Shown here: piece by piece, positions 3,060 to 37,480 of the stretch
Position numbering within the stretch: the stretch's first letter is position 1
Layout of the letters: each line of letters begins with the position of its first letter
Source of the DNA: a virus
Length of the DNA: 64,000 bases
IMG/VR virus record: IMGVR_UViG_3300042946_000249
Reading direction: 5' to 3' (one strand)
Notes under the pieces: generated by a model
Database searches by the model: none
Told to the model about the DNA's origin: nothing
Seen by the model: only the letters and a program-made list of their open reading frames with translations
Program-made: the position numbers and the translations under genes

Positions 3060-3460
3060 CGTGTTTTAGTTCCTGATTTGGCCGTTTATCGCTCATTTAT
3101 GCCTTACCAAAACCCATTTATCGCTCACATATGAGCGATAATGTCCGTTATAACGGACAAAAATGAGCTATAATGTGCATTATATAGCACATTTGTTGTG
3201 CACTTTATACCCTTCCGCATATAAAATCACATGATTGTGCAATATTATACCCTTTAGCGTATAAAAATCACAGAATAAGTGTCAAATTGGTGATATATTT
3301 CCAATTTACGTCATTTATAACGTGAAACTGGTGTCTCAAAGGCCTGATTGGAAATATATTTCCACTTTTACGTACGTAAAAATGTGCTCAAGCTACACTT
3401 TTACGAACATAAAAATGGAACAGCCCATATTTCAGGACTGTTCCAGAGTTACAGCACTTA
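3060..3460. promoter_or_regulatory. control region dense in perfect palindromes and direct repeats
   Basis: Perfect palindromes: 24 nt TTATCGCTCACATATGAGCGATAA (3118-3141), 16 nt GTCCGTTATAACGGAC (3143-3158), 16 nt TGGAAATATATTTCCA (3349-3364), 16 nt TTTTACGTACGTAAAA (3366-3381). Direct repeats: TTATCGCTCA x2 plus one inverted copy; about 27-nt repeat TTATACCCTTnnGCrTATAAAAaTCACA at 3204-3230 and 3246-3273; ATATATTTCCAnTTTaCGT x2-3. Confidence 0.6.
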
Positions 3461-3752
3461 GTAACCCAACCCTTCGAGTTCATATGCACTAGCCTCAACG
3501 ATTATATTACCGTGAGACACTGTGTACATAAATATTATTTGCATGTGATTGGCAAGCTTTTGAAACAGCTTGAACTCTGTGGGCGTAAATGTGAGCTTTT
3601 TCATTTTTGAAGGATTTATTGTGTTGATTAATAAGGACGATTTGCTTTGCGTACCACCTGTTCCCAGGTCATTCTACCCTTGCAGCCATACCCTGTGGTC
3701 CTGCAAGACGACATAAATATAGCAATAACTGCTAATAGTAATAACTTTCTCA

Positions 3753-3902
3753 TTAGTCTATAATGTTTAATAGGTCAGCAATAGATTCCATGCACTCATC
3801 GAAGTATTTAGCGTCCCACATAATGACAGACACTAATGCATTCCATATCATAACAGGAAAACATGCAGCCAAAGAGACAGCATAATAAATAATCTTGAAC
3901 AT
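3753..3902 (-). CDS. small (49 aa) single-TM protein MFKIIYYAVSLAACFPVMIWNALVSVIMWDAKYF..., not in the ORF track (<60 aa)
   Basis: Hand translation of the reverse strand; one hydrophobic helix. Confidence 0.3.
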   Translation of the reverse strand: MFKIIYYAVSLAACFPVMIWNALVSVIMWDAKYFDECMESIADLLNIID

Positions 3903-4428: not shown

Positions 4429-4621
4429 GGCTATATGCTTTAAATGGTTAGTTAATGCTATATTTATTCTCTAATGTTTTGATTCACCTAGTTACCAATT
4501 TACCCCTCAAAAGTGTCTATGGGTCACACACCATCTCTCTAACTCACAGAGAATCAATGTGTTATGCTCTGAATTTATCCTACACCCACCCAAGGAATGG
4601 TGCATTCCCCACCCTTATATA

Positions 4622-6095: not shown

Positions 6096-6670
6096 AACTT
6101 ATTGGTTTAAAATGTTTTAAGAAAAATGAGACAGTTTTATGACTTGTCTTAGGTCTTGTGCCTGCTAAGGCTGTTTTAGGTATTACGTGCAAAAGCAATA
6201 ATGCACAACCTGTAATTGAGTTGCATTGTTGAGTGGATTTGTTAGTGGGGGTACCCCCAACCGCTCAAAGTGTACTGGGGGGTTTGAGATGGAGTACCCT
6301 CCCCTCCCATGCACATGATAGGTTTTTGGGTGTAGGGGGGATGTTTCACGTGGAACAATGTATGGGGGGATAGTAAACCTATAGGTTTACATATGGGGGT
6401 GTTTTGTCAAGCTATAGGTTTACAAAAAAATTTTGTTGGTTATATGGAGGATGTCTTGTAACTTTGGGGCGGAGGGTGGGTTAGGAGAATGATACATCCT
6501 AGGGACAGATAGTCAATTGATGGGGATGAGTGGTGAACGGATGACTCATGAGCTAAGAATATAAGAATGGGGAAGGTGTATCTGGTTGAAAAAAAGGATA
6601 TAATATAGCAATAGGTTAAAAGATTGTATTTGAATATGTTAGAATAACCCCCTATCTTTGTAACAACTAT
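6096..6670. promoter_or_regulatory. non-coding G-tract and palindrome-rich region between the leftward block and the rightward virion block
   Basis: At least 10 runs of G3-7 on the + strand; perfect palindromes GGGGGTACCCCC (6247-6258) and AAACCTATAGGTTT (6375-6388); direct repeat CTATAGGTTTACA (6379-6391 and 6412-6424); three GTAC-centred G/C elements at 6247-6300. Confidence 0.45.
6629..6660 (+). promoter_or_regulatory. candidate Bacteroidota sigmaA-type promoter (TTTG, 20 nt, TAtcTTTG)
   Basis: -33-like TTTG at 6629-6632 and -7 box TATCTTTG at 6653-6660, 10 nt before the ATG at 6671. Confidence 0.3.
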
Positions 6671-7018
6671 ATGACGGTGATATTACAAAAACTGAAGAAA
6701 GAGGAAGCTGACAGCTACAGAGTGGCTGAAAGGTATTACACCATACTTTCTGCAGTGAATGATTTGAAGCTGACACAAAGGGAGATACAGCTCCTTGCCT
6801 TTACAGCTATTAGGGGTAACATCTCCTATGCTAATATACGCAAGGATTTCTGTGACACGTATGGCACCACAAATCCTTCTATAAACAACATCATCTCCAG
6901 GCTGAAGAAGATGGGGGTCTTGGTGAAGGATGGGACAAAGGTGAAGGTGAATCCCAGGATAGTATTAAACTTTGAAAATGACATCACCCTTGAAATCAGA
7001 CTTGTTCACGGACAATAA
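6671..7018 (+). CDS. hypothetical 115-aa protein, first gene of the rightward block
   Basis: ORF track. Confidence 0.5.
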   Translation: MTVILQKLKKEEADSYRVAERYYTILSAVNDLKLTQREIQLLAFTAIRGNISYANIRKDFCDTYGTTNPSINNIISRLKKMGVLVKDGTKVKVNPRIVLNFENDITLEIRLVHGQ

Positions 7019-7436
7019 ACCTGTGAGCCTGTCTGTTAAAGACTGGATCATTAGAAAACTGGCGCCTAAGATGCTGCTTGGTGAGAAAACAATCGAGGCT
7101 GTCATCAATCACCAGTTTCAAGAAGCCAATCTAGCGCTAGCCAAGAATAAGAGCTTGGAAATCAGTGGGTTTGGAAAGTTCTTCTTCAATGATGGGAAGG
7201 CTGTCAAGCAGATGGAGAAATACGAGAGTCAGAAAGCTCTGTTCGAGAGCAGGCTCCTAGACGAAACACTGACAGACCAGAAGAGGAAGTCTTACGAGCT
7301 GAAGCTTCAGATAGCAAAGGATTGCATAAGAGATTTAAAACCAAGAATGTATGCTTTCACAGATTTACGAGGGATGGAGGAACAACCTTCTGCCCCCAGA
7401 GAAACTGAAGACAGCGATATTAGAGACGAGCAATAA
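6972..7436 (+). CDS. possible HU/IHF-like DNA-binding protein; start uncertain (Met at 6972 or a downstream Met)
   Basis: Motif LEISGFGKF resembles the HU/IHF GFGxF signature; the preceding helix (IEAVINHQFQEANLALAKNKSL) fits, but the RNP beta-arm motif is absent. Confidence 0.4.
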   Translation: MKMTSPLKSDLFTDNKPVSLSVKDWIIRKLAPKMLLGEKTIEAVINHQFQEANLALAKNKSLEISGFGKFFFNDGKAVKQMEKYESQKALFESRLLDETLTDQKRKSYELKLQIAKDCIRDLKPRMYAFTDLRGMEEQPSAPRETEDSDIRDEQ

Positions 7437-7641
7437 ACGATTAGCCATCTGTAAGCAGTGTGAATTCCATTCAGCTAACAGAAAAGACTACAAAACCATC
7501 CGTCTTGACGCTCATTGCACCCATTGTGGATGCACTCTGTCTGCTAAAACCAAATGTCTTTCATGTGCCTGTCCATTAGAAAAGTGGTTGGGTGAGGTTA
7601 CGCAAGAACAAGAAGAGCAAATGAAAAAAGATGGAAAATAA
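7351..7641 (+). CDS. Cys-rich zinc-finger protein (CKQC ... CTHCGC ... CLSCAC)
   Basis: ORF track; overlaps the previous gene by 86 nt, so the true start may differ. Confidence 0.4.
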   Translation: MLSQIYEGWRNNLLPPEKLKTAILETSNKRLAICKQCEFHSANRKDYKTIRLDAHCTHCGCTLSAKTKCLSCACPLEKWLGEVTQEQEEQMKKDGK

Positions 7642-7888
7642 CGAAGTGGTATTCAAAAAGATTCCGTTGGAGGTGTTCATAAACATTCTCCAAGACGCTT
7701 GGAACAAGGGGGCAGACTATATTGATATTATAGGAGTGCCTGACCAGGTGCAGGATAACATTGCTGTAGCTATTCGTGAAGAATACATGAATGTCAATCC
7801 TGAGGATGAGTTTGAAGTGGATGTGGAGCTAGAGCATCCTGAGGATGAAAAAGATTTATCAGACGAAGATTTAAACCAACTAATATGA
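7631..7888 (+). CDS. small acidic protein (85 aa)
   Basis: ORF track. Confidence 0.45.
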   Translation: MENNEVVFKKIPLEVFINILQDAWNKGADYIDIIGVPDQVQDNIAVAIREEYMNVNPEDEFEVDVELEHPEDEKDLSDEDLNQLI

Positions 7889-8355: not shown

Positions 8356-8674
8356 AAAAACTACATACATAAATACAGAGCTTGAATGGGCAGAGCAACA
8401 GCTCACATCCTGGAAAGCTTATGTTGATGCAAACCCACTACATGAACTGAAGGACAGAATTGAGTGGAAACCTACAGCCAAAGGAGGCATGCTTCCTATG
8501 GTGATAGCTTCCATAGAGGCACAGGGTAAGTTCATACAGGAGACAATGAAAAACTATTTAGCTCTTCTTGAGGTGGTGGAGAAACTGCGTGAGAAGGAAG
8601 AAGCTAAGGTGGAAATCAGAGGCAGTGGAGAATTAAGCTCTATGGCTGAAGACTTCCTAAAGAGCAGACGATGA
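8339..8674 (+). CDS. hypothetical 111-aa protein; by position a small-terminase candidate
   Basis: Directly upstream of terL with an ATGA start/stop overlap. Confidence 0.45.
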   Translation: MAKIIKKTTYINTELEWAEQQLTSWKAYVDANPLHELKDRIEWKPTAKGGMLPMVIASIEAQGKFIQETMKNYLALLEVVEKLREKEEAKVEIRGSGELSSMAEDFLKSRR

Positions 8675-10698
8675 GTGAGCTTATAAGCATAGACTACAAA
8701 GACTGGTTTATTAACCAGGGGCGTCTGCCTGACCGTCAGTCTGCAGAGTATAAGCCATTTTTTGACTTTCATAAAGAGATATGTCTGAATGGGTGCATGA
8801 TGAACGGAACATATATCAATCCGTTTCTATATTGGCACCTAAATGTTTGGCATACAGAGGTGGATGTTGTAGATGAAAGAGGACGCATCTTCCAAAAATA
8901 TGCAAATCCCCTGTTACGTGATAACGAATGGATTGTGACAAATGAGATAGACAGGGCACAACAAGAAAAAAAGGGCTTGGTGATACTAGGAATACGACGT
9001 TTTGCCAAGTCTGTTTTAGAGGCTTCTTACATAGGGTGGGGCGCAACATTTGATGAAAACTCCCAGAATGTGATCGCTGGGTTAAACGCCCCCGATATAA
9101 AGCTGATCACAGATAAGCTGGACAAGGGCCTCAACTTTTTGCCTGAAGCATGGAGATGGCAGAGAGTGGAGGATAATTGGAAAAACCAAGTCACCCTAGG
9201 TATCAAGACTCGTGGAGGAGAACGTATACCGTTCTCTCAAATCCTCATCCGTAACTTGGATGAAGGTAATAACGAAGAGGCTATTGCAGGTACCAAACCT
9301 CGTAAACTAATTATTGACGAGATTGGTAAGGGCAACTTCCTCAGAGGCTTTCAGGCAGCTGTGCCTGGTTTCACCACTCCGTACGGATGGGGATGTTCTC
9401 CTCTCCTGACAGGAACAGGTGGTGATATGAAGAAATTTATGGACGCTAAGTCCTTAATGTTTGACGCAGACAACTTTAACTTCCTTGCTTATAACAATGA
9501 AAAAGATGAGAAACGTGTTCATGGCTTGTTTATTTCGTATAAGTATAGAATGGAAGCTAAGGAAGAAAGCACGCTTGGCGAGTTCTTAGGACAGCCTGAA
9601 GGAAGCGATCTACACAACGTTAAAATGTTGGTGAGCAACGAAGAGAAAGCTCTTGAAATCACCACATCCAACCTAGAACGCTTGAAGAAGGCAGGAGATA
9701 GGGTGGCCTATCTAAAAGAAAAGATGTACTACCCGCTTGAAGTGGATGACATCTTCCTGAATGAGGACACAAACATATTTGACATTGAAGCAGCTAAACG
9801 TCAAAAGGGTAGACTGCTTAATCAGGGGCGTACAGGCACTCCTGTTATTTTGTTTCATGATGGAGAGAAAATAAGTCACGAGTTCACAGACAAACAACCA
9901 ATAACCAACTTCCCTCTCAAAAATAGTGACTTAAAAGACGCTCCTGTTGTTATATACGAGTTCCCTATCGAGAATCCTCCATATGGACTTTATGTGGCAG
10001 GAGTTGACCCGTATAGACAAGGACAAGCTGCATACAGCACCTCTCTAGGTTCTGTGTATATTTATAAGAGAATGCACGACATCACTGGTGAGAAATATCA
10101 GGATATGTTCGTAGCTTCGTATTGTGCACGTCCTGATAAGAAAGAGACTTGGGAAGAACAAGCCAGATTTCTTATTAAGTATTTCAACGCACGTACGCTC
10201 TGTGAGAATGATGACATCTCCTTCATAGAATATATGAAAGCAAAAGGAGATGCACACTACCTTGAGAAACAACCTGATTGGTTGAAAGAGGTGGTGCCAG
10301 GCACCACGGTGAAGCGTGAGTATGGGGTGCACAGAAGCTCTGACAAAATCAGAGACTATCTACACAACTGCCTCAAGAAGTATATGGAGGAAGTAGTGTA
10401 CACCGAGAAGGATGAAGATGGTAACATCACCAAAGAGGTGCTTGGAGTGTCAAAGGTTTTTGATCCTGTTCTACTGGAAGAGATAATTCAGTACAACGAT
10501 CAGGGTAACTTTGACCGTATCATTGCTGCAGAACTTGCTATTGCTCAGGCTCTTAAGATGGACCCTGTGCTTGGTAAGGTGGGAGGATCAGCTGACCCTA
10601 GAGTGAGTGCAATATTCAAACCTAACAAGAAGAACATGTTGTTCACAGAATCTCGTGGGTTATTTAATAAAGTGAAAAAAAGTAAACTTTTTATATAA
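8671..10698 (+). CDS. terL: terminase large subunit
   Basis: Deviant Walker A G-I-R-R-F-A-K-S; Walker B KLIIDEIG; RNase-H-like nuclease motif YVAGVDPY; 675 aa. Confidence 0.85.
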   Translation: MSELISIDYKDWFINQGRLPDRQSAEYKPFFDFHKEICLNGCMMNGTYINPFLYWHLNVWHTEVDVVDERGRIFQKYANPLLRDNEWIVTNEIDRAQQEKKGLVILGIRRFAKSVLEASYIGWGATFDENSQNVIAGLNAPDIKLITDKLDKGLNFLPEAWRWQRVEDNWKNQVTLGIKTRGGERIPFSQILIRNLDEGNNEEAIAGTKPRKLIIDEIGKGNFLRGFQAAVPGFTTPYGWGCSPLLTGTGGDMKKFMDAKSLMFDADNFNFLAYNNEKDEKRVHGLFISYKYRMEAKEESTLGEFLGQPEGSDLHNVKMLVSNEEKALEITTSNLERLKKAGDRVAYLKEKMYYPLEVDDIFLNEDTNIFDIEAAKRQKGRLLNQGRTGTPVILFHDGEKISHEFTDKQPITNFPLKNSDLKDAPVVIYEFPIENPPYGLYVAGVDPYRQGQAAYSTSLGSVYIYKRMHDITGEKYQDMFVASYCARPDKKETWEEQARFLIKYFNARTLCENDDISFIEYMKAKGDAHYLEKQPDWLKEVVPGTTVKREYGVHRSSDKIRDYLHNCLKKYMEEVVYTEKDEDGNITKEVLGVSKVFDPVLLEEIIQYNDQGNFDRIIAAELAIAQALKMDPVLGKVGGSADPRVSAIFKPNKKNMLFTESRGLFNKVKKSKLFI

Positions 10699-13280
10699 TG
10701 GCTATCATTAGGTATACAAAAGATGCTACAATTAGGTATGCATATTTAAATATATTCCCTGATCAGTTCAAAACTGACAAGGAAAAGCAGGATGAGAGTT
10801 GGATAAAGAACACCATGGACTACTTTGCAAACAAGGCATATGCTGAATATGTAAAGAACCGTGACACCTTTGTCAAAAACTATGACTTAATTAAAGGTAT
10901 TCTGAGGATGGAAGACTTCTATCAAGAACCTCAGGTGAAGAGCTTTACAGATATGATGACAGCTGATCTTCAGCTTCCTGCGTATGTAAAGATGTATTCC
11001 ATCATGACCACACCAGTGAACGAGCTGGTAGGTGAAATCACAAAACGCCCTGACACATTCAGGGTGAAAGCGTTTGATGATGACAGTAAAGCTGAAGAGC
11101 TACAATTTAAGACAGACATTCTCCAGCAATATGTAATTGGTCAAGCTAAACAGAAAATTGTTCAGCAGGCTGCAATGCAAGGTGAAGAGATTGATGAAGA
11201 AGAGTTGCAACAGCTCACCATGGATCAAGTGAAAGATGTGCTTGACAGCTACACATCTGTAGCTGAGAAATGGGCTAACCACGTACTCACCTGTCAGAAG
11301 GCTGAGTTTAACCTGAAGGAAAAGAGCGAAGATGCATTTCGTGATTTGCTAATTTCTGGAAGAGAATTTTACCACATTTATGAAGATAACTCAAAACTTG
11401 GATTTAATATTGAGGTGGCTAACCCCAAGAACACTTGGTTTCTTACAACTCCTGATAGAAAATGGATCTCTGATCCTACAGGTAGAGCTCAGGGTGCTTA
11501 TGCTGCTGGTACGGTACAGGTTATGGAACTTTCAGAAATCATTGAGAGTATTCCTGACCTAACCAAAGAAGAAATTGATCATCTAAGAAGTTCTCTCCAA
11601 GACTATGGACTAATTAATGTCCGTGAATCAAATTTGGGTAATCCTGATGCAATACCTGGTACAGATTCAATTATGTACGATACGTTTGATCCACTGGTCC
11701 TTCAAACCCGTATGATTATCGAGAGTGAAATGAAGGAGAACAACGATGGTCTAAAAGACTTCTTAGGACTTACATCTAATGTAAGCTCATTTGGATACAA
11801 GTATGTTGTTGTTCGTTCTTATTGGATAAGTAAGAAAAAGATTGGTAAGGTCATTTATCTAGATGAACTAGGCAATGAACAATCTGTCCTAGTAGATGAG
11901 AATTACAAATCTGGCACCATCCCTACACAAGAATCTATTGAATGGGGTTGGATTAACCAGTGGTATCAGGGTACAAAGATTGGACCAGACATCTATCATA
12001 TCAAACCGTTCAAGCTTCTTAACTATTGTCCAATCATTGGTACAACATTTGAGGTGAAGAATACAGAGGCAAAGAGTCTGGTTGACTTGATGAAGCCTTT
12101 CCAGGTGTTGTACAACGTATGTATGAACCAGCTTTACAAACTCCTTGAGAAGGAAGTGGGTAAGGTGTATTTGACATCCATCAGGCACATTCCTGTTCCA
12201 AAGGATGGTGATGCTCAAGATGCTCTTGACATCTGGGAAATGGAAGCACGTAACAGAGGTGTTGTCTTTATTGACGATAGCCCTGAGAACTTGAAGAGTC
12301 CTTCTAGCTTCAACCAGTTTAGAGACATTGACCTCACACGTACGCAGGAAATACAATCTCGTTACACACTAGCACAACAACTCAAGAACGAATGTTGGGA
12401 GCTCGTGGGTATGAGTAAGCAACGTATGGGATCTGTGGCAGCTAGTGAATCTGCTACAGGTGTAAATGCAGCTGTTCAACAATCTTATTCTCAAACAGAA
12501 CCTCTGTTTGTAGCACACGAATATATCATGGGCCAGCTCTATCAATCAATTATAGATGCTGCTCTATATGTAGAATCCAAGAAGCCTCAATCCACTCTCT
12601 CTTACATTACAAATGAAGGAGAAGCTGCTTTTGTACAGGTGAATGGATCTGACCTTAAATTCCGTGACCTGAAGGTGTTCTTGACAAATCGTCCTGAAGA
12701 TAAGCAAATGTTTGACGAGCTTAGAGGACTTTCTCAGGCTGTTATCCAGAATGGTGGCTCTCTCTACGATGTTATTGAGCTTTACAGCACCAAGTCTATG
12801 AGAGCTATGAAGAAGGTGTTTAAAGAGTTGAGAGACAGACAAATGCAAATGCAAGATCAGCAAATGCAAACTCAACAGCAACAGATTGACCAGCAAAGAG
12901 AAATTGCAGCTGCTCAGCTTCAACAGGCTCAGCTTCAGAAAGAGCAAGACATTGCTAATGAGAACTATCAGAACGAACTGGACAGAATTAATAAGAAAGA
13001 AATCGCTCTGATTGCTGCTGAATCAAAAGCAGGTCCTCTCTCTGATGTGGATGAGAGTGGCACCCCTGATGTTCTAGAGATTAACAAACTTGTTGCTGAA
13101 CAATCTCGTACAGCAAGAGACTATGAAATGAAAATGGCAGACATTCAAGGTAAGAATGTCCAGAATCTTCAGAAGCTTGAGATTGAAAGAGAGAAGCTGA
13201 AGGTGGCTAGAGAAAATCAAAAGAACGACCTTGAGATAGCAAAATTGAACGCTAAGAACCGAGGTGCAAAATCTAAATAA
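10698..13280 (+). CDS. putative portal protein (860 aa) with Gln-rich C-terminal coiled coil
   Basis: TAATG overlap with terL; size and position only. No motif could be verified by eye. Confidence 0.55.
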   Translation: MAIIRYTKDATIRYAYLNIFPDQFKTDKEKQDESWIKNTMDYFANKAYAEYVKNRDTFVKNYDLIKGILRMEDFYQEPQVKSFTDMMTADLQLPAYVKMYSIMTTPVNELVGEITKRPDTFRVKAFDDDSKAEELQFKTDILQQYVIGQAKQKIVQQAAMQGEEIDEEELQQLTMDQVKDVLDSYTSVAEKWANHVLTCQKAEFNLKEKSEDAFRDLLISGREFYHIYEDNSKLGFNIEVANPKNTWFLTTPDRKWISDPTGRAQGAYAAGTVQVMELSEIIESIPDLTKEEIDHLRSSLQDYGLINVRESNLGNPDAIPGTDSIMYDTFDPLVLQTRMIIESEMKENNDGLKDFLGLTSNVSSFGYKYVVVRSYWISKKKIGKVIYLDELGNEQSVLVDENYKSGTIPTQESIEWGWINQWYQGTKIGPDIYHIKPFKLLNYCPIIGTTFEVKNTEAKSLVDLMKPFQVLYNVCMNQLYKLLEKEVGKVYLTSIRHIPVPKDGDAQDALDIWEMEARNRGVVFIDDSPENLKSPSSFNQFRDIDLTRTQEIQSRYTLAQQLKNECWELVGMSKQRMGSVAASESATGVNAAVQQSYSQTEPLFVAHEYIMGQLYQSIIDAALYVESKKPQSTLSYITNEGEAAFVQVNGSDLKFRDLKVFLTNRPEDKQMFDELRGLSQAVIQNGGSLYDVIELYSTKSMRAMKKVFKELRDRQMQMQDQQMQTQQQQIDQQREIAAAQLQQAQLQKEQDIANENYQNELDRINKKEIALIAAESKAGPLSDVDESGTPDVLEINKLVAEQSRTARDYEMKMADIQGKNVQNLQKLEIEREKLKVARENQKNDLEIAKLNAKNRGAKSK

Positions 13281-13810
13281 TGTTTGATAGGCTAATTGAC
13301 CTAATCACAGAGTGGATTGAACAGCTGCTTCCCTTCTTTATCGTTAGAGATTTTGAGGAAGCAGTTGTTCTACGCTTTGGTAAGTTCCACAAAACAGTTA
13401 AACCTGGTTTCCACTGGCGCATCCCGTTTGTGGATCAGCCTATGGAACAGCACGTTGTGGTCACAACCATAAGCCTAGCCCCCCAGAGTCTTTACACTAA
13501 AGACAAACAGAACATTGTGGTGAAGGGGGTGATTAAGTACAGAATAGCTGATATTCAGACATTTATATTAGAAGTGTATGATGCTCAGGACGCTATATCA
13601 GATATGACACAGTCTATTATTAAGAACATCATCATGGACAAAACCCTAGATGAGTGCATAGACACTGAGATAGATAACACCCTCACGAAGAAAGCTAGAG
13701 TGGAAGCTAGAAAATGGGGGGTGGAAATCCAACAGGTAACCCTCACTGACCTAGCCCCAATCCGCTCTTACAGACTTATAAACGACACGGTGATAAACAA
13801 ACTTGATTAG
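13280..13810 (+). CDS. SPFH/band-7 (prohibitin/HflC-like) domain protein, core domain only
   Basis: EEAVVLRFGKFHKTVKPGFHWRIPFVDQ...VVKGVIKYRIADIQTFILEVYDAQDAISD matches the SPFH core; TAATG overlap with the portal stop. Confidence 0.8.
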   Translation: MFDRLIDLITEWIEQLLPFFIVRDFEEAVVLRFGKFHKTVKPGFHWRIPFVDQPMEQHVVVTTISLAPQSLYTKDKQNIVVKGVIKYRIADIQTFILEVYDAQDAISDMTQSIIKNIIMDKTLDECIDTEIDNTLTKKARVEARKWGVEIQQVTLTDLAPIRSYRLINDTVINKLD

Positions 13811-13930
13811 AGTGATTTACATTAATGCTATATTATATGTGAAAAACATTCATATAGATGCATAACTCTTTGCTATTCAATAATCTCTGACTATTTTTAC
13901 ACGCGTAAAACCAATTTAAACAAACTACAT

Positions 13931-15223
13931 ATGGCTGAGAACCTAGATACCCCGTCATTCGGTAACTTTAGTATTGAAAATACTATGGAGATGGGACCTG
14001 GAGGTGCAGAGCTCCTCAACGATCTTATGTCTCCTGAGACATCAACAGGCAATCCTGATGATATCCAGAAGATTGTAAAAACTGCTGAGCCCCCTGCTCC
14101 AGATCCAAAACCCGATGTTCCTAAAGGAAAAGAAGTTGTTCCTAAAGCAGATGGTGAAGAATTCACTGGTCAAGATCTCATATCAAGCTTCCTCGGTGAT
14201 AACACTGATGGAGAAGAAGATTCAGAAGAGGTTGATCCTCAACCAGTTAAGAAGAAAGCTCCTGCTGCACCAGCAGCTGAAGCTACTCCTGCTGCAGAAG
14301 AAAACGAGAATGAAGATGGTGAAGGAGAAGAGCAAGTGAGTCAATTCACAGCTTTGTCTCGTGACCTTTTCAAACTTGGTGTGTTTTCACAAGATGAGGA
14401 TGAGGAAGATGTAAACATCTCCACTCCTGAAGAGTTCCTTGAACGCTTCCAAAGTGAGAAGAAAAAAGGAGCAGTTGAGATGGTGCAAAACTTCATTGGT
14501 CAGTTTGGCGAGGATTATCAACAAGCGTTCGAGGCTATATTCGTTAAAGGCGTTAGTCCAAAAGAATATTTTGGTACATATAATAACGTGGTGGGCTTTT
14601 CTGAAATGGACCTTTCACAAGAAAGCAATCAAGTGAGAGTGATCAAGCAAGCATTAGCTGACCAGGGTTTTGAAACCGAAGACATTGATACTGAGGTGGA
14701 AAGACTCAAAAACTATGGTGATCTTGAGAGCGTAGCTACAAAACACCATAAAGTGCTTGTTAAGAAGGAAGCCCAGAAACTTGCTCAAATGGAGCAAAAA
14801 GCTGAACAAGAGCTCCAACAAAAACAAGCAGTAAAAAACCAATACATCCAGAATGTTCAGGGAGTCCTACAGGACAAACTGAAATCTAAGGAGTTTGATG
14901 GAATACCCATCAATCCCAAGTTGGCAAACGAACTACAAGACTTCCTGCTGGTAGATAAATACAAGACAGCAAGCGGTGAGACCCTCACTGATTTCGACAA
15001 AACCATCTTGGAATTGAAGAGACCTGAGAACCATGCAACAAAGGTGAAAGTTGCCCTCCTGCTTAAAATCCTAGAAAAAGATCCCACCCTATCTACCATC
15101 CAAAGAACAGGCGTTTCAAAGAAATCAAACGAGCTGTTTGGGGAAGTGGCTAGACAGGTGACTAAAACTAAGACAAGCAGTGTTAGTGGTCAACCAGCCA
15201 AACAAAATTCATGGTTCTTATAA
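13931..15223 (+). CDS. acidic low-complexity plus coiled-coil protein, scaffold-like
   Basis: N-terminal Pro/Ala/Glu-rich low complexity, then a long charged helix; sits between portal and capsid genes. Confidence 0.45.
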   Translation: MAENLDTPSFGNFSIENTMEMGPGGAELLNDLMSPETSTGNPDDIQKIVKTAEPPAPDPKPDVPKGKEVVPKADGEEFTGQDLISSFLGDNTDGEEDSEEVDPQPVKKKAPAAPAAEATPAAEENENEDGEGEEQVSQFTALSRDLFKLGVFSQDEDEEDVNISTPEEFLERFQSEKKKGAVEMVQNFIGQFGEDYQQAFEAIFVKGVSPKEYFGTYNNVVGFSEMDLSQESNQVRVIKQALADQGFETEDIDTEVERLKNYGDLESVATKHHKVLVKKEAQKLAQMEQKAEQELQQKQAVKNQYIQNVQGVLQDKLKSKEFDGIPINPKLANELQDFLLVDKYKTASGETLTDFDKTILELKRPENHATKVKVALLLKILEKDPTLSTIQRTGVSKKSNELFGEVARQVTKTKTSSVSGQPAKQNSWFL

Positions 15224-15249: not shown

Positions 15250-16803
15250 ATGGCAATTCAAACAATCCCAGGTCTAACTGGCTTCACGTATGCTCGTGTC
15301 GCATCTATGGACAAGCGTGCTGTGGGTAAGCTAACTGACGCTAACCACCTGGAGAGCTTTCACTCAACTGAGCCTGCTGATTACGATAAGAAAATCATCA
15401 GCCTCTACACACAGAGCTCTCTTTACAGCAACGACTTTCTTGACATGATCAACAAAAGCACGCCTTATTACATTGATAATAATAGCGATGCTTGGAAATG
15501 GCAAGTAGCTGTTCCCTACAAATTCCCTAAGATTATCGACATCCCTGCTGCTACAGCTGAGCTGAGCAAGCCTGGTATCGATGGTCAAGAGTTCCAATTG
15601 GTAATTGACACAAACGAGTTCTCTAAGAACGCAATCGTTTCTGTTGGTTCTCGCCAATATGGTCCTCGCTTTTACGTTATTAAGGATCCAGTTCCTTGGA
15701 ACATGGGCTTCCTTTATAGCTTCACTTTGGTTACAGACAATCCAACTGTAGACTTCGTTAGCTCTACCTTCTTGCAAGTGGGCATTGAACTTGAGTTGGT
15801 TGATGCTGCAATTGGTGAGTTCGATCAAGATCTTTTAGGTCTTCCTCGTTTGGGTGAGCAAATCACAATGTTTGAATCTTTGGGTTCTGCATATGGTTTT
15901 GAGCACAAAATCACTGAGTGGGCTGATGACAAAATGATGCGTGACTCTGCAGGTCGTCCTTTGGACATCCTTGTATATGCACCTCAGCGTCGTAACCAAC
16001 TTCCTTTAACTCGTAACGATGTTAAATGGGAGCCATTTATTGAGTTCTGGATGCGTAAGTCTATGCTTGAGTTGAAAGTTAAGCGTATGATTTGGTCTCG
16101 TCCTGGTACTGTTAAGACTAACGGTAGCAAGCAAGAACTTAAGCGTACCTCTGCTGGTGTTTACCACAGAATGCGTAATAACGGTAACCTTGTTCAGTAC
16201 AACCGTGGAGAATTCACTGCAAACTTGATTCGTTCAGTGTTTGGTGACTTGTTCTATCGTCGTGTGGATGTTAAGGACCGTCGTGTTAAAATGTACACTA
16301 ACGAAGCAGGTTTTGACGTATTCCAACAAGCTTTGAAGACAGACGCTTTGAACAGTGGTCTTACCTTCATGGCTGATTCTGGAAACCGTTACATGCAAGG
16401 AGAAGGACAACACATCACTTACAACTTTGCATTCGATGCAATGGTAACTCGTGAGACTGGTCGTGTTGAACTTATTCACTTGAAAGAACTTGACCTTCCT
16501 CAAACTAACCTTGAATTCGGTCAGAACAAGAAGAGCACTCCAGTATTTATGGTATTCGACGTGTCTCCAATGTCTGATGGTTCTTTGGTTAATAACATCC
16601 GTGAAGTTCGTATGAAGGGTGCACCTTCTATGACTTGGGGTTATATCGATGGAACTCGCCACCACTTAGGCTTTGCTAAGTCTCAGGGTATGAGCTCTGC
16701 GAACAAATTCCCAGGATACGAAATCTGGATGAAGGATCGTTGTGATGTATTCATTGAGGACTTGTCTCGTACAGTTCTTATTGAGGAAATCCCACAATTC
16801 TAA
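15250..16803 (+). CDS. putative major capsid protein (517 aa)
   Basis: Position. Strong highly-expressed codon signature (Arg almost exclusively CGT/CGC, versus AGA in the neighbouring giant genes). Followed by a stable RNA structure. Confidence 0.55.
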   Translation: MAIQTIPGLTGFTYARVASMDKRAVGKLTDANHLESFHSTEPADYDKKIISLYTQSSLYSNDFLDMINKSTPYYIDNNSDAWKWQVAVPYKFPKIIDIPAATAELSKPGIDGQEFQLVIDTNEFSKNAIVSVGSRQYGPRFYVIKDPVPWNMGFLYSFTLVTDNPTVDFVSSTFLQVGIELELVDAAIGEFDQDLLGLPRLGEQITMFESLGSAYGFEHKITEWADDKMMRDSAGRPLDILVYAPQRRNQLPLTRNDVKWEPFIEFWMRKSMLELKVKRMIWSRPGTVKTNGSKQELKRTSAGVYHRMRNNGNLVQYNRGEFTANLIRSVFGDLFYRRVDVKDRRVKMYTNEAGFDVFQQALKTDALNSGLTFMADSGNRYMQGEGQHITYNFAFDAMVTRETGRVELIHLKELDLPQTNLEFGQNKKSTPVFMVFDVSPMSDGSLVNNIREVRMKGAPSMTWGYIDGTRHHLGFAKSQGMSSANKFPGYEIWMKDRCDVFIEDLSRTVLIEEIPQF

Positions 16804-22730: not shown

Positions 22731-23987
22731 TTGCAAATGCCTGAAAATCAATCTCTTCTGCAACAGCTGGAGCAAATGCTTCACTGGAAAAAGAGCAAAA
22801 AGTTCTATGCAGACAAACTAAACATCACAGAAAATGAGGTGGATGAGTTACTGAGGGAGTTGAAAGGATCAGAAGAAATACAGAATGACGCTGAGATTTC
22901 AAACTATATTGGAGAGCTAGAAGACCATGTGGTAAGGTTTTTGGAGGATGTGCAGAAGGGAACAGGTGAGGTGGTGTTCAACTCTAAAGATGAAATCAAA
23001 AGCTTAGATGAGTTAATCGAGAAGTGCAATATTGACACAGAGAAGTGGGAGATAACTAAATACGTACAGAACTACTGGGGTAATGGTAACCAGCCTCACT
23101 GGCAGGTGAAAGCTTGGTTGGGTAAGAAGAAAGATGAGCAAGTGTTTCAGGACAGCTTTGTATCCTTCCTAGAAACCTATCAACCAGCATCTCCAGAAAT
23201 AATGGCTCCCAAATATGAGAAAGGTAAGAAAGATGCTTGCCTAATCATTAACAAACAGGATTCCCATTTAAACAAGCTAGACATAGGAGGAGAGAACGAT
23301 ATAGACCAACGCTTTGGTGATTTCATCCAGAGGGTGGAAATAATCCTAAATCAATCTTCTCTATCTAACAATCTCACAGACATCAAATACATCATTGGTT
23401 CTGATGAGTTCAATAGTGAATTCACTAACACAACTACAAAGGGAACTCCCCAACAAAACATCCTTTCATACCACGATGCTTTTCAGGCAATATGTGATCA
23501 TGAGGTGAGCGTGATAAACCTGCTCCTTCAGAAAGGAGAAAATGTGGATGTTATATTTGTAGCTGGTAATCATGATGAATATGTAGGATGGCATTTAGCC
23601 AGTTGGTTACAAACCTACTTCAGAAACGAGGAGCGTGTGTTCTTTGACATCTCTCCAAGATATAGGAAGTATGTAAGCTATGGCACCTCAGCATTAATGT
23701 TCAATCATGGAGATGCTCTGAAGCCTGCAAAGCTTGCTGGTTTATTCCCTATGGAATTTAAAAGTGAGTGGTCAGATCATGAGAATTTCTACATATTTAC
23801 AGGTGATAAACACCATGAAATGAGTCTTGATTTCAATGGTATTAAGTTCTATCAGCTCCCTGCATTCTCTACAGCCAAAAGTGGCTGGGATGATAAGAAT
23901 GGATACACCATCACTAAAGGTGAGGTGACTGGGTTCTTGATAGATTTACAAGACGGAATAACGAATATATTCAAACAGTATTTATAA
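22731..23987 (+). CDS. calcineurin-like metallophosphoesterase with an about 180-aa N-terminal extension
   Basis: FVAGNHDEY (GNH[DE] motif III), QDSHL (DxH), IGSDEFN, NHGD. Confidence 0.65.
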   Translation: MQMPENQSLLQQLEQMLHWKKSKKFYADKLNITENEVDELLRELKGSEEIQNDAEISNYIGELEDHVVRFLEDVQKGTGEVVFNSKDEIKSLDELIEKCNIDTEKWEITKYVQNYWGNGNQPHWQVKAWLGKKKDEQVFQDSFVSFLETYQPASPEIMAPKYEKGKKDACLIINKQDSHLNKLDIGGENDIDQRFGDFIQRVEIILNQSSLSNNLTDIKYIIGSDEFNSEFTNTTTKGTPQQNILSYHDAFQAICDHEVSVINLLLQKGENVDVIFVAGNHDEYVGWHLASWLQTYFRNEERVFFDISPRYRKYVSYGTSALMFNHGDALKPAKLAGLFPMEFKSEWSDHENFYIFTGDKHHEMSLDFNGIKFYQLPAFSTAKSGWDDKNGYTITKGEVTGFLIDLQDGITNIFKQYL

Positions 23988-24715
23988 TGTCAACTTTTAG
24001 GAAGTTAGTTTCAGATGTACGCTCTATGCACAAGTTGCTCTCCACGGACAACTTGATCACGGATAGAGCTGTCATGTCTGAAATTAAGAACAATGCCTTC
24101 CTCCTGATAAAGCGTGAGACTAATCTGAGGAAGTTATGGGCAACCGATACAGTTTTTACCACCATTCCCTGCTTGGAGATGGTGGAAGTTCCTATTTCTG
24201 AGTGTTGTGATTATGCTGATCCTTGTACAGTGGCTAGAACAAAGTTCAAGCTTCCTAGGATTACAGAGGGTAATTATCAATATGTCATTCAGGGTGTTTA
24301 TTCAATTAACGCCATGAGTGGTCAGGGAAAGAAACTTAAGGAAATAACCATCAACCGATACGTAAACTTGCTCAAGCTTCCAATCATTAAGAAGGAAGAA
24401 TACTACTGGATTTCTAATGGGTATCTGTATGTGAACAATCCACTCCTAAAAGCAATCAGATTTGTTGCTCTTTTCGAGGAAGATGTTCCAAATGAGATAA
24501 TGTATCCAGAATGTGGATGTGGCACTCCAGACTATACACCAGAACAACTGTGTGTAAATCCATTAGACAAAGAATCCCCTGTTCCTGGCTACCTGGAAAA
24601 GCAGGTGTTGGAACTCACTTCTCAGAAGCTTCTCTCTACGTATTTCAAATTGAAGACAGACATCACAAGTGATGGAGTTGATGGTCAAGCACCTAACGCT
24701 CCAAACTTGAGATAG
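23987..24715 (+). CDS. hypothetical protein (242 aa), TAATG-coupled to the phosphoesterase
   Basis: ORF track. Confidence 0.5.
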   Translation: MSTFRKLVSDVRSMHKLLSTDNLITDRAVMSEIKNNAFLLIKRETNLRKLWATDTVFTTIPCLEMVEVPISECCDYADPCTVARTKFKLPRITEGNYQYVIQGVYSINAMSGQGKKLKEITINRYVNLLKLPIIKKEEYYWISNGYLYVNNPLLKAIRFVALFEEDVPNEIMYPECGCGTPDYTPEQLCVNPLDKESPVPGYLEKQVLELTSQKLLSTYFKLKTDITSDGVDGQAPNAPNLR

Positions 24716-25199: not shown

Positions 25200-26171
25200 A
25201 TGTCATACTATTACAAATATAATTTCATCAGCCCTGAGCCTGTGTATTCCACTGTAAAGGAGGAATTCAAAAGCTATTTTGATACAGGAGCAGTTGATGA
25301 TTTGATGTTCCCCACCTACTTGGATAAGTGTCTAAGGAAGCTGGGTAGAACCACATATGTGATTTCTCAGGAAATCCTACACATTAATGACTATCAGGCT
25401 AGACTTCCAGACAACTTCTTTGCTGTTCGTGAAGCATGGTTGTGCACAGCTGTAAATGGTTTCCCTTATCAGCAAGCTAATTCATTCTACTCACAAGCTG
25501 CTACATCTACAACAATTCAGGTGAGCCCTATCACCACAGATTGTGCCATCCCTAGTCCTTGTTGTGGTAATGTAGGATGTGATGGATCTTGTATGCCTGA
25601 ATTGGTTCAGACAGTATACAAGACTAACAACCAGGCTCCTGTTCTCTATCAAAGAGAATACTTACTAAAACCTGGTAATATATCCGCACAAGGTAACTGT
25701 GGTGTAGACTATACCAACAACTGGGAGTTTTATGCACAGGCACCTCCTATTAATGAGTTCACTCCTGGTTCCTCTTGGTATGACTCATTTGACATTAGAG
25801 ACAATAAGTTTGTCACCAACTTCCGTAATGGCGTGGTGCATCTTCTTTTCTACGCTACAGAGTATGACGCTGGTGGAAATCAGCTGATTCCTGACAACTA
25901 TCGTATCAGAGAGTTTATTGAGGCTTTCATCAAATACAAAGTGATTGAGACCCTCACTAACCAAACTAACGATGAGACGTTCAACCAGCTTCAGACCAAG
26001 CTTGCGTTCTACAAACAACAGGCTGATGAGGCATTTATCATGGCTGATATTGAGATCAAGAAGCAAGATCCTTGGACTAAGCAACGTAGGATTAAGAACG
26101 ACCTTAACAGATTTAATATGTATGAACTCCCCAATCGTACCAATAGATATGGTTGGAGACGTAATAACTAA
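25200..26171 (+). CDS. hypothetical virion protein (323 aa) with Cys cluster CAIPSPCCGNVGCDGSC
   Basis: ORF track. Confidence 0.5.
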   Translation: MSYYYKYNFISPEPVYSTVKEEFKSYFDTGAVDDLMFPTYLDKCLRKLGRTTYVISQEILHINDYQARLPDNFFAVREAWLCTAVNGFPYQQANSFYSQAATSTTIQVSPITTDCAIPSPCCGNVGCDGSCMPELVQTVYKTNNQAPVLYQREYLLKPGNISAQGNCGVDYTNNWEFYAQAPPINEFTPGSSWYDSFDIRDNKFVTNFRNGVVHLLFYATEYDAGGNQLIPDNYRIREFIEAFIKYKVIETLTNQTNDETFNQLQTKLAFYKQQADEAFIMADIEIKKQDPWTKQRRIKNDLNRFNMYELPNRTNRYGWRRNN

Positions 26172-26176
26172 CAGTA

Positions 26177-29100
26177 ATGGCTGAACAGGAACAAGGCAAT
26201 ATTAGACAGGAGTATAACAATGCTACCACAGGTCTTAACATGGACCAAACCCCTAACCAAATTGCGAAGGGGAAATTAACGTATGCATTAAATGCTGCTG
26301 TTGAGAATTATGATGCTAATTCTGTAAACTATCAGAATGAGCCTGGGAACGAACTTTGTGTTACGTTCCCTTCTGGCTTTGTGCTTATAGGTAACCACTT
26401 CATCCAAGAGAAGAGCAAACATATATTCTTCATCACCAATCCTGATACAGGAGATAGTCAGATTGGATATATGGAGAACAACGACTGTATTTATCGTGTG
26501 GTTGTAAATGCTCCTTGCCTCAACTTTAGTACCAACTATCCCATCCACAAGGTGGCGCATAAGATAACTAATTGCACCACAGAGATTTATTGGACAGATG
26601 GATTCAATCCTAGGAGATATTTGGACATTGACAACATTCCAAAAGTTCTAAAATCTGGAACTCCTTTCTGCGATCCGAAATATACAGATGATCTGGATTG
26701 TAACCAGCTCAAACTTCAACCCAACTTTAACATCCCTCAACTGGAGGTAACTGATGTTGCTAGCACAGGAAACCTGATTGCTGGTACATACCAGTTTGCT
26801 ATTCAGTATTCTGACGCTCAGGGTAATCCCTACACTTCCTATTATTCTGTTACCAACCCAACACCTATTGCTGATAAGTTCATTACATCAGTGAACTTCA
26901 ACTATGCTGTTGGAAAGTCCATCATCCTCAATATAAGTAACCTTGAGGACACTGGATTGTATCAGTATTTCAACCTAGCAGTGATTAAGACAGTGAATGA
27001 CATCACTTCTGTTGAGTTGGTTGGCACTTATTACATTGATGCTGTTCAGAAGGAAATCACATACACTGGTCAGAACGTTACACAAATCAGACTAACCATC
27101 AATGATATATTCGAGAAGTTCCCTTATTACGACATTGCACAAGATCTCACTGTTGCACAGGATGTCTTGATATGGGACAACCTTACATCTATTGATCGTA
27201 TCAACTACCAAAGCATTGCTAGTCAAATTCCTCTGTTATGGGAAAGCTGGAGAATTCCTGCTGACCAAAACTATGCAGATGAATTGAATGCCACTAACCT
27301 CAGAGGTTATCTGAGAGATGAAGTGTATGCTTTTGAGATAGTGTTCTTACTTAAGAACGGTAAACAAACTGATGGGTTTCATATTCCTGGTAGAATCAAA
27401 GGTCCTGCAGAGAACCTGCAACCCGATGTACCAGACACCAACCCAGACTTTATAGGCATTCCTGATTACACATCTGGGGGAGTGGGATATAGCCCGTATT
27501 GGAAAATCTACAATACAGGATCTGTACTTGGTACAAGTCCTGGATATTCTCCAGCTCCTGACTACAGAGGTGCTTATCAATATGGTGAGTTTGGTTATTG
27601 GGAATCAGCTGACACCTACCCATGTAACAAAGATGTATGGGGCGATCTTGCTGGCCAACCTATCAGACACCACAAGTTCCCTGATATAAATGTAAGTCCT
27701 GCTTACGAATCTAAGATATTTACAGGACCTTCAGGTATGGTGATGGGTAATGATGCTGTGTTCCCTATTGGTGTACAGATTGATGTACAACTAGTGAGCT
27801 CACTCATTCAGACATCCAACCTTACACCAGAGCAAAAAGATGATATTGTAGCATTCAAAATCATCCGTGCTGATCGTGGTACAAACAAATCTATTGTTGC
27901 TAAAGGCATCCTTAGGAACGTAAACACATATGAGAGGGAAGAAGAAACTTACTACTACCCTAACTACCCATACAACGATCTTAACTCAGATCCATTCCTC
28001 AATACAGCAAACAATGCCTATTCACAAATCTGTGATGGGTACACTGTATTTATAGATACACTTGTTGTAGACCCTGCAGGTGGACCTTCTTTTGCTGAGG
28101 TGGAATACACTGATTGTAACACAAACAAAGCAACAAAGAAGAAATACTTTGCAATAGATCAATATCCACTTTGTTCAATTGGCAAACCTAGAATCCTTGG
28201 TCCTGCAACAGGAAGGGTGGGACTTTCTACATATGAAGTGTGGACAGCTCAGGTTTGTAATCCTAGCCCTTTTGCATTTGCCAGAGGTGGTAGAATTGAA
28301 TGGAATGACATCTATACAGGCATCACTACACAATGGATAAATGGATGGCCCACTTCTCCAGTGTATACATTATATGTAGTTCCTGGCACAGGTGGTCCTG
28401 TACAGATTGAAGGCCCTGGTGAAATATGTTTCACTGGACCTACATTAGTGACAGGAGCTAATTGTAAAGCTGAAACTCCTCAACCTGGATTTACAGAGAA
28501 GTACAGACAGATATTCAACTCTCCTGAAACTTCTTTTGGACAGCCATTCTTAGGTGGTGTTCTGAAGCTTGAGAGTGTAATGTTTGGTAGAGGTAAGGGT
28601 CACTTTGTTGAGGTGAGAGATAACGCCAAGTATAAACTCTTAACAGAAGAAGCTCAGCGTGATGCTCTTGAAAGTGCTGAAGAACTAGGTGATGTAACCA
28701 CACCGTTTAATGCCACTGCTATGTTCACAGCATATCAGGCGTATTTAACCATCTATGTGAATGGTATCACGAGGAAGAACTATGCCTACTCTTTCAACTC
28801 TATAGGTGATTATAACTATGGAGTGGGAGTTCCTGATAATCAAGGGATTAAGCAAAGAACTCTTGACATCGCTAGATATTTGATTCCTGGAGTGCAGAAC
28901 GTTGGTGATCTATACAACATCAACAACTTCCAGAGAGAATCATCTGTCTACCTGAGAACCGATCTTAACAAGACAGCGCTTCCTTTCCCAGACCAAAGTC
29001 CTAACATGTTGTCTGCAGGAAGCCCAATAGTTACAGACATATCAAGATTCACTATATCAGAAAGAAGCAAATGTCAAGCTCCTGCTAAGGAAGAAGACAT

Positions 29101-37300: not shown

Positions 37301-37393
37301 GAATACAAGAAAGCTCTTGAGTCAAAGTCTAAAAAGTCTGACAGTGGGTCTTCCAAAAATGGATCTATTGTAAGGTCTCTTAAAAATATCTAA
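34343..37393 (+). CDS. Gly-rich large virion protein (1016 aa)
   Basis: ORF track. Confidence 0.55.
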   Translation: MKAKMLKIAGVKSEKEFYKKYPTEEAFMAKHGKALKKAQIGSYIGGESGAGFQPMNFQEIYDNVDYGITGSTDEMRKEEELRKAQIKSAQEESGKGGGGGLGDIANVLQSKEFADALTSAAGGARKGKTIKKAQAGDQIEVEEKPGGDFFKQASKYAGPAGKLIEGFQQLKAEKEALKSAQQMQGVSDVVRQAANTRPEETQRRYLRPENIKNTGEEFFPIYGVGTNVLARNGASVGGGEIMNTFAPNTLYDDLGYEPLNDSERYKQFMHGGKMHKAATGLEMFAEAGGGDIASKLLTGITGENAGGNIGGTIGKTAGMFFGPVGSMVGQAAGQLIGTALDRKPQQIKKAKAATEKNIKATALQSGFQGGQAQNSSFMENGGTTSPYEWVSHTWQPQVIATFGEHKVKDLLTPPKDADMLRAGGHLKEYTPPSARAMSTERPDFQMGGELQTHWGGYAESMSQNPYLPDGGETIMFRGQSHDESDGKGNTGIGITYGDNPVEVERGEPAIKMRDGSGGDSSLVVFGNLKIPKLLGDPKAEGKNFKRYVEGLSKNENKQNTLVNKSITEIDEMDVQTPFDRLKFNSLQANVMGGNLKLKDIAQKKMDAAALQTAMNDTIEQFGLKTTDKGNIMAKLGANILKAQTGKDLPKLEQKDYEYLQGLYDVAEREKTGPTVLKFQKEFHRLAKPYAEKVISEEPTTSFGKKMGYPATDIRSNEDKIFGKRTVKYMSALKDAMKSPTPPEKESGLPPITLTTKKSETVPEKEKEGEEPVYPKRPGIINVINEVLPYLRPTDVEDLDPNQLTGEMYALATNQLEPVAAQTIQPQLTIPYDISLQDILNENRASLRSQQRLVGYNPALQSQLGAQEYAANQRVLGEQFRMNQAFKNQIYKENRDKLDQFGLKNLEILDRQYLRQAEAKSKTKATTQAALNSIAAKYAQNKLENRTLQVYENLYNYRFDPRFRATNMNPLVDFEAMIANASPSQIAEYKKALESKSKKSDSGSSKNGSIVRSLKNI

Positions 37394-37457
37394 CTAACTC
37401 AGTTATAGCGATTTACCAAAACTCGTTATAGCTCTTGGAAATTATAATTATTCATAT

Positions 37458-37465: not shown

Positions 37466-37480
37466 CTAACTTAATGTACA

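Follow-up and report, generated by a model that had tools for sequence, protein, structure and literature searches.

Why should a phage carry a gene for an SPFH (band-7) protein inside its head-gene block? The question is posed by a 64,000-nucleotide (nt) stretch of virus DNA from IMG/VR record IMGVR_UViG_3300042946_000249 (the window, below), in which a 176-amino-acid (aa) SPFH protein, here called mini-SPFH, is encoded between the portal gene and a putative scaffold gene. Close relatives of the phage replace or lack this gene, and it is therefore regarded as an optional accessory gene and not as head-building machinery. With moderate confidence, we consider it a dispensable, horizontally swapped accessory cargo gene; its shortened, stomatin-like product would act on the host, at the membrane or on SPFH-protease systems. 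The gene and the parts of its product are as follows.

13280–13810, plus strand: mini-SPFH gene, 176 codons plus stop; an ATG-start open reading frame (ORF), supported by Pfam Band_7, AlphaFold2, Foldseek and the ratio of nonsynonymous to synonymous substitution rates (dN/dS).
13283–13327, plus strand: N-terminal amphipathic helix, residues 2–16 (DSSP, hydrophobic moment, family motif).
13334–13759, plus strand: SPFH alpha/beta core, residues 19–160 (Pfam match; predicted local distance difference test, pLDDT; root-mean-square deviation, rmsd, to SPFH domains).
13760–13807, plus strand: short C-terminal tail, residues 161–176, with the family motif RSxRL (pLDDT 51–61; helix 165–173).

Mini-SPFH belongs to the SPFH superfamily by both sequence and fold. 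Pfam Band_7 (PF01145) matches residues 21–160 with E=3.3e-28 and 99.4 bits against a cut-off of 23.6, and a profile of its family, compared with PDB sequences, finds stomatin (3e-16), QmcA (6e-12), HflK (2e-11) and HflC (6e-10). An AlphaFold2 model made with 70 diverse homologues as input has a pLDDT of 88.8 (above 90 across core residues 19–160) and a predicted template modelling score (pTM) of 0.74; a first model from a shallow alignment, with a pLDDT of 68, gives the same Foldseek ranking. The best Foldseek match in the PDB is human stomatin (E=1.4e-14, template modelling (TM) score 0.78, 175 columns), the top matches are all SPFH proteins (stomatin, HflK, QmcA, prohibitin, erlin, flotillin), and isolated SPFH domains solved by crystallography or NMR superpose on the model with TM scores of 0.88–0.91 and rmsd of 1.1–1.5 Å. 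The core carries the stomatin-type motifs QxxxTKD, RxG and WG. In pairwise comparisons (528 usable pairs) the median dN/dS is 0.076; the gene is therefore real, and it is under strong purifying selection.

Mini-SPFH has no transmembrane helix, the best 19-residue Kyte-Doolittle window scoring 1.15 against a threshold of 1.6. The usual place of the transmembrane segment or hairpin is taken by residues 2–16, a helix with the highest hydrophobic moment of the protein (0.72) and a net charge of −3, which aligns with the second arm of the stomatin hairpin. In the AlphaFold2 model there is also no coiled coil or cap: the chain stops 16 residues past the last SPFH strand, and the sole helix after the core is nine residues long (165–173) and of low confidence. 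The C-terminal tail corresponds to the first turns of the CC1 helix, at the start of which the alignment to stomatin stops, with the remainder of CC1/CC2 and the cap lacking; PDB homologues found by Foldseek run 80–250 residues beyond this point. A previous sequence-only reading of the locus had described a bare SPFH core lacking transmembrane anchor and coiled coil, and the Pfam match, the hydropathy maximum, the model and the stomatin match in Foldseek all bear this description out. No NCBIfam model reaches its cut-off with mini-SPFH (the best named one is HflK, TIGR01933, at 86 bits), no PHROG family matches it along its full length, and the best PADLOC match, which spans 50 residues at E=0.0024 and 14.8 bits, is not significant.

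The genes around mini-SPFH, together with the ring and muzzle genes farther downstream, mark the window as that of a crAss-like phage, as judged from domain matches. No near-identical DNA is found among GenBank phages. The immediate neighbours are:

8671–10698, plus strand: large terminase subunit, TerL (phrog_6681, E=7.4e-87).
10698–13280, plus strand: portal protein, 860 aa (phrog_6547, E=5.8e-98; Pfam P22_portal, E=3.4e-14).
13278–13282, plus strand: TAATG, overlap of portal stop and SPFH start, read from the sequence.
13931–15223, plus strand: putative scaffold-like protein, 430 aa (position and composition; phrog_16294, of unknown function).
15250–16803, plus strand: crAss-type major capsid protein, MCP (Pfam Crass_capsid, E=7.1e-27; phrog_11589, E=8e-31).

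A single base is common to the portal stop TAA (13278–13280) and the SPFH ATG (13280–13282), confirming the start/stop overlap reported earlier. TerL and portal (8671–10698 and 10698–13280) are joined by the same kind of overlap, so that the three genes TerL, portal and SPFH follow one another without a gap. The distance from portal stop to SPFH ATG is −1 nt in 40 of 77 unique relatives and +2 nt in 34 of the 77. The position between portal and scaffold-like gene plus MCP, also claimed earlier, is correct, with the proviso that the 430-aa protein has no Pfam match and is scaffold-like by position and composition only; it stands between portal and MCP in all relatives. The junction holds a single SPFH gene, not an hflK-hflC pair, and no NfeD partner lies beside it, its neighbours being the portal gene and the 430-aa protein, which has no NfeD match.

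Is the gene a fixed part of this block? IMG/VR contains at least 139 loci with close homologues of mini-SPFH, and in all 80 that were fetched the order TerL, portal, SPFH, 430-aa protein, MCP is kept. Across these loci SPFH identity ranges from 69 to 98% and that of MCP from 92 to 100%, SPFH evolving faster than MCP and at about the pace of the portal. A sample unbiased for SPFH is provided by loci fetched via an MCP profile, which returned close relatives only. The slot between portal and scaffold-like gene was judged in the 59 of these loci with enough upstream sequence (MCP 95–99% and portal 78–93% identical to the window; individual loci are cited below by L numbers). Its content varies:

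43 of 59 loci: window-type SPFH.
10 of 59 loci: a 77–83-aa acidic protein plus an 84–89-aa protein with HEHFH (HExxH motif).
3 of 59 loci (L117, L138, L159): nothing, with about 141–149 nt from portal to the next gene.
2 of 59 loci (L129, L150): a 175-aa SPFH, 24–27% identical by tblastn.
1 of 59 loci: a 73-aa ORF.

SPFH is thus absent or replaced by non-SPFH cargo in 14 of the 59 MCP-anchored relatives. On a portal tree of 49 genomes the state of the slot changes at least 10 times, and the nearest portal relative of the window, L117 (a 114.7-kb contig), has an empty slot. Allele identity of SPFH is decoupled from that of the flanks; in one example the identities are 68% for SPFH, 88% for portal and 98% for MCP. 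The two SPFH genes of 24–27% identity (L150:8056–8583 and L129:7607–8134) stand in backbones whose MCP is 95–97% identical to that of the window, which indicates replacement by a distant family member. A hidden Markov model (HMM) of the family detects no further SPFH in the window, and none in the sequence, up to 21.5 kb, fetched for each locus without SPFH.

Judged by MCP, no cultured phage is closer to the window than Leptolyngbya phage Lbo-JY46, whose MCP is 25% identical. Its TerL, portal, scaffold-like and MCP genes are orthologous and in the same order as in the window; the portals are 29% identical (E=1e-89), and the 430-aa protein is weakly similar to a 407-aa protein at the same position (E=3e-5). 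Run against the whole 125-kb Lbo-JY46 genome, the family HMM gives no SPFH match at E<=10. Were mini-SPFH a core morphogenesis gene, every close relative and Lbo-JY46 too should have it, which is not the case. The sequence-only reading was therefore right that this is not a canonical morphogenesis component, given that relatives lack or replace it. The assembly chaperone or cage that it offered as one function is disfavoured by the 14 relatives without SPFH at the slot, by the empty slot of L117 and by Lbo-JY46; the co-occurrence comparison, with the gene absent from related phages, tells against a morphogenesis role.

The alternative cargo deserves a short description of its own. The HExxH cassette, at L095:4090–4555, occupies the same slot in L098, L099, L101, L102, L104, L106, L112, L115 and L119. 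Its acidic protein begins with MDINEILD, and the overlapping partner contains HEHFHLKH, a zinc-peptidase-like HExxH motif. Neither protein has a Pfam, PHROG or PADLOC match, and the 73-aa ORF and an 83–89-aa ORF of the slot match nothing in Pfam or PHROGs.

The 3' boundary of the slot is a conserved sequence that begins at the end of the SPFH gene and continues to the start codon of the scaffold-like gene.

13806–13930, plus strand: conserved intergenic element, promoter-like, 3' boundary of the cargo slot; TTAGAGTGA..TTAATGCTATATTAT..CTCTTTGCTATT..TATTTTTAC..ACTACAT-ATG.
13822–13835; 4452–4465 and 56436–56449, plus strand; 3715–3728 and 6601–6614, minus strand: copies of the motif TTAATGCTATATTA.

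Across relatives the element reads TTAGAGTrAA..TTAATGCTATATTAT..CTCTTTGyTATT..TACTTTTAC..ATG and is found after every cargo type and after the empty slot; in most relatives (77 unique sequences) 118–122 nt separate the SPFH stop from the next ATG. Because the same element follows every cargo, the slot is taken to be bounded by the portal 3' end and this promoter-like element, with cargo exchanged between them. Allowing up to two mismatches, the motif TTAATGCTATATTA (core GCTATATT) has five copies in the window where 0.86 would be expected, three or more of them outside the listed ORFs. All relatives, and the distant locus L170 too, have the motif ahead of the scaffold-like gene, and it is a candidate phage promoter or regulatory site. 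The slot that mini-SPFH fills is variable and closes the tightly coupled TerL-portal unit on its 3' side. The earlier proposal that the head genes from terminase to capsid form one operon must be qualified, since the conserved promoter-like element separates the SPFH stop from the scaffold-like gene.

At loci with an empty slot, sequence resembling the SPFH 3' end could be mistaken for a deletion scar. This interpretation was dropped: the sequence is found behind each type of cargo and in the distant L170 as well, and is thus a conserved junction or regulatory element. As far as such sequence comparison goes, the element informs neither loss nor gain of the SPFH gene. A Bacteroidota-type promoter (TTTG-N18-20-TAnnTTTR) at 13869–13899 was rejected as unenriched, with five occurrences against 2.1 expected and five reached in 6 of 100 shuffles, and a generic scan for sigma-70 promoters and terminators gave background level only.

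Mini-SPFH has many relatives. When the representatives of 1.84 billion clusters (50% identity) were searched exhaustively with a profile, 8,214 SPFH proteins were found, 116 of them at E<1e-30, and the best 150 matches listed are nearly all 168–190 aa long and aligned end to end. The family has the core motifs common to stomatin-type proteins. Whatever their genomic context, members keep a family-specific N-terminal motif, MFDxLIDxL..W...P (M-F/L-D-x-L-I-D/E...W...P), and the C-terminal RSxRL, and R165 is invariant. The N-terminal helix is acidic to neutral across the family (median net charge −1), and rare members bear added true transmembrane segments. The window protein has the length, N-terminal helix, core and RSxRL of the family and lies on a phage contig. 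All inspected genomic contexts are phage-like:

L170, L172, L173, L174, L183: portal, (small ORF), SPFH, scaffold, Crass_capsid.
L164–166, L175: junction of CrAss_Ring_1 and muzzle gene, with overlapping stops and starts.
L177, L184: beside DNMK and nucleotide-metabolism or replication genes.
L171, L182: among small genes with an RNA ligase, HNH or Tad2-like gene.
L176: operon end.
L185: just after an M15 endolysin.
MW202733: behind TerL in the metagenome-assembled genome of a 45-kb podovirus.

A neighbour-joining tree does not sort the members by genomic position. MW202733 is the sole member among GenBank phages. A motif scan of 185,579 species genomes, a limited test with a single pattern, gave one match, on a 6.7-kb contig of a metagenome-assembled genome, and BFVD holds one close structural twin, a 173-aa protein of an uncultured phage (TM score 0.85). 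The family is large and apparently phage-restricted. Of two tblastn matches in human-faecal 'Bacteriophage sp.' records (MT835563 and MT836173), neither of them counted as a relative, the one in MT835563 is an ordinary 301-aa SPFH ORF among dense overlapping ORFs. The literature was found to describe neither the truncated family nor the variable slot, nor SPFH in the head and tail modules of crAss-like phages; a 2026 preprint merely lists a cd03408 (SPFH) domain match for a gut Crassvirales genome.

Several family members have neighbours of separate interest. Diverged crAss-like lineages encode a conserved 82–89-aa ORF, unassigned to any family, between portal and mini-SPFH (L172:7727–7996, L173:7729–7998, L174:6743–6994, L183:5747–5995), which could be a partner protein; in the L172 lineage this small ORF has no Pfam match, to NfeD or otherwise. 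Homing-endonuclease-like genes (Endonuclease_7; NUMOD1) flank the L173 portal at 3061–3807 and 7000–7713, the second standing between the portal and the small ORF that precedes SPFH, which suggests that the junction is a general insertion hot spot. Genes of known anti-defence families occur in loose proximity to mini-SPFH: a Tad2-like gene 3 kb upstream (L182:2994–3176) and an Acb2/Tad1-hairpin gene on the opposite strand (L185:12455–12513). Proteins with a type IX secretion sorting domain (Por_Secre_tail) are encoded on the contigs of L169 (1876–3867) and L184 (7457–8851), so that some of the family may come from phages of Bacteroidota. On the 40.8-kb phage contig of L185 (5367–6513) an M15-family endolysin and a 69-aa ORF are followed by mini-SPFH, and this lysis-cassette context may point to a membrane-related role.

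For comparison with the contexts at the ring and muzzle genes, the corresponding domain matches in the window are:

23987–24715: CrAss_Ring_2.
25200–26171: CrAss_Ring_1.
26177–31792: crAss muzzle protein.

Downstream of the muzzle gene, in the region where crAss-like phages encode very large virion proteins, the window has two giant plus-strand ORFs of 3870 and 1562 aa (40132–51744 and 51744–56432) without Pfam match, and ORFs of 1016 and 881 aa at 34343–40126 are likewise unmatched. ARAGORN finds no tRNA gene in the window; Lbo-JY46 has a large tRNA cluster just upstream of TerL.

How does mini-SPFH compare with known SPFH proteins? Stomatin and QmcA are its best matches in sequence and structure (Foldseek E=1.4e-11 for QmcA), and like them it has a complete SPFH1/2 core. 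Unlike stomatin and its prokaryotic relatives, it lacks the hydrophobic hairpin, the CC1/CC2 wall and the C-terminal cap, and is phage-encoded and 176 aa long against 250–310 aa. Prokaryotic stomatin-like proteins also have NfeD partners (YbbJ for QmcA/YbbK, PH1510 for PH1511), whereas the phage gene has no adjacent NfeD. The fold is the same as that of HflK and HflC, and metagenome sources label the protein 'HflC', but it misses the equivalog cut-offs of both (TIGR01933, 86 versus 159 bits; TIGR01932, 61 versus 134). HflK and HflC are paired genes whose products have a transmembrane segment and a coiled coil; mini-SPFH is a single gene with neither, and because it lacks the transmembrane segment it would be cytoplasmic, not periplasmic as HflK/HflC are. 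Anchor and coiled coil are the two defining features of canonical membrane SPFH scaffolds, and both are missing.

SPFH genes of phages and giant viruses are known from annotations; most are full-length, and they are mostly interpreted in the light of HflK/C and lambda cII. They include phrog_200 ('lipoprotein'), Vi01-like gp200, prohibitin-like proteins of Rhizobium and Agrobacterium phages, and Band 7 proteins of mimivirus and pandoravirus. These full-length phage and giant-virus proteins have 260–500 aa with anchors and coiled coils, unlike mini-SPFH, whose match to phrog_200 is weak (E=2.7e-7) and restricted to the domain. A soluble shell with an SPFH-like fold does exist in the shoulder of the major vault protein (Foldseek E=5e-6, 12% identity, TM score 0.54), though there it is one domain of a protein of about 700–900 aa (709 residues in the matched chain). 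The slot itself resembles 'moron'-type hot spots in having conserved flanks and alternative cargo or none among near-identical genomes. It differs from others of this type in lying at the portal/scaffold junction of a crAss-like, probably virulent phage, with SPFH as the dominant cargo.

The slot polymorphism and the mobility of the gene between modules argue against an integral role in head assembly and favour action on the host, as a target that many infections share, or self-association. Based on these observations, mini-SPFH could be viewed as a cytoplasmic 'mini-stomatin' with a complete SPFH1/2 core, in which an acidic amphipathic helix replaces the membrane hairpin and the coiled coil is cut off after about 15 residues. 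Its target would be the host and not the capsid; located on or close to the cytoplasmic side of the cell membrane, possibly as a membrane-peripheral protein, it would use its intact SPFH surfaces. The rare family members with true transmembrane segments are counted as a membrane link. Two modes of action can be envisaged: the protein may self-associate without closing a cage, or it may insert into or cap host SPFH assemblies (stomatin/QmcA-NfeD, flotillin, HflK/C-FtsH). The outcome would be altered membrane-protein quality control or membrane organization during infection. The sequence-only reading had already listed modulation of host FtsH or of membrane microdomains as a candidate function. 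Translational coupling to the portal would keep mini-SPFH at low, portal-like abundance, as is suggested by its linkage to a low-copy portal and by the fact that the element leading into the scaffold and MCP genes comes only after it. Two papers (PMC9663324, PMC9157467) report dimers, trimers or fibrils of isolated SPFH domains, so that oligomerization could still occur without the coiled coil.

Several points weigh against host action. Amphipathic helices that bind lipid are not typically acidic, as the N-terminal helix is (net −3; family median −1). In at least five diverged crAss-like lineages the gene has remained beside the portal, and in two others it lies beside tail ring genes, and such a position could reflect a virion-linked role. 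Strong purifying selection within an allele class is, moreover, an unusual signature for an arms-race gene.

A more specific form of host action is put forward only tentatively. The mini-SPFH family might consist of phage effectors, soluble 'decoy subunits' without a coiled coil, carried as a swappable cassette, that intercalate into or cap host SPFH cages, and host caged membrane proteases or membrane microdomains could thereby be opened or disabled during infection. A less likely variant is an optional mini-SPFH ring docking on the 12-fold portal or on tail ring assemblies.

The alternative that survives best, though we think it improbable, is that mini-SPFH is a counter-defence or superinfection-exclusion factor. 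The slot would then be an anti-defence hot spot, and the product would neutralize a component of host immunity, for example an effector acting on membranes or a sensor that responds to late proteins, and not a housekeeping SPFH/FtsH system. In near-identical backbones the slot turns over between unrelated cassettes and alleles that differ widely, the family is apparently phage-restricted, and some members lie in accessory regions with a Tad2-like or Acb2/Tad1-like gene. However, these genes are only loosely near, several kilobases off or on the other strand, the low dN/dS fits poorly, and no literature connecting SPFH with anti-defence was found. The sequence-only reading had suggested an anti-defence factor riding along with the head genes; the riding along is supported by the variable slot and the unrelated modules in which the family occurs, whereas for the anti-defence part the best PADLOC match given above is not significant.

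Slightly less probable still is an optional morphogenetic helper, which would dock as a ring or patch on the 12-fold portal, or in other lineages on the tail ring proteins, and might tether the assembling vertex to the membrane. T4, for instance, needs membrane-associated factors to start prohead assembly on gp20. Start/stop coupling to the portal is kept in 74 of 77 unique relatives, the layout portal, SPFH, scaffold, MCP recurs in the deeply diverged crAss-like lineages listed above, and the alternative crAss-like site, between Ring_1 and muzzle, also lies within the virion module with overlapping starts and stops; it is because of these positions beside the portal or ring proteins that a helper keeps some likelihood. 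SPFH proteins also form rings, and the major vault protein shoulder has the same fold, but the ring-building coiled coil is missing here. A helper is further hard to reconcile with the absence or replacement of the gene in 14 of 59 close relatives with 95–98% identical MCP, with the empty slot of the nearest portal relative, with Lbo-JY46, which makes virions without any SPFH, and with family members in nucleotide-metabolism, early-gene and lysis contexts of non-crAss phages.

The least likely is a dispensable, Hoc/Soc-like virion decoration or internal protein: decoration proteins typically show presence/absence polymorphism between close relatives, as mini-SPFH does, its gene lies within the structural block, and full-length SPFH proteins gave a few peptides in mass spectrometry of preparations of Vi01-like and Erwinia jumbo phages, but the gene is coupled to the low-copy portal and precedes the promoter-like element from which the scaffold and MCP genes follow, family members are found in non-structural modules, and no solved phage particle among the Foldseek PDB matches has an SPFH-fold protein.

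Thus, an accessory cargo gene acting on the host is the reading that we prefer. One consequence concerns annotation: a gene inside a head operon does not necessarily encode a head protein. The portal/scaffold junction, as a cargo slot with conserved flanks, is also a handle for finding accessory genes of crAss-like phages. SPFH proteins are universal membrane scaffolds whose cage structures have been solved only recently. The mini-SPFH family offers a minimal soluble SPFH domain for structural work. A minimal SPFH family that is under purifying selection and traded among abundant environmental crAss-like phages is a candidate viral tool acting on host SPFH-protease or membrane systems.

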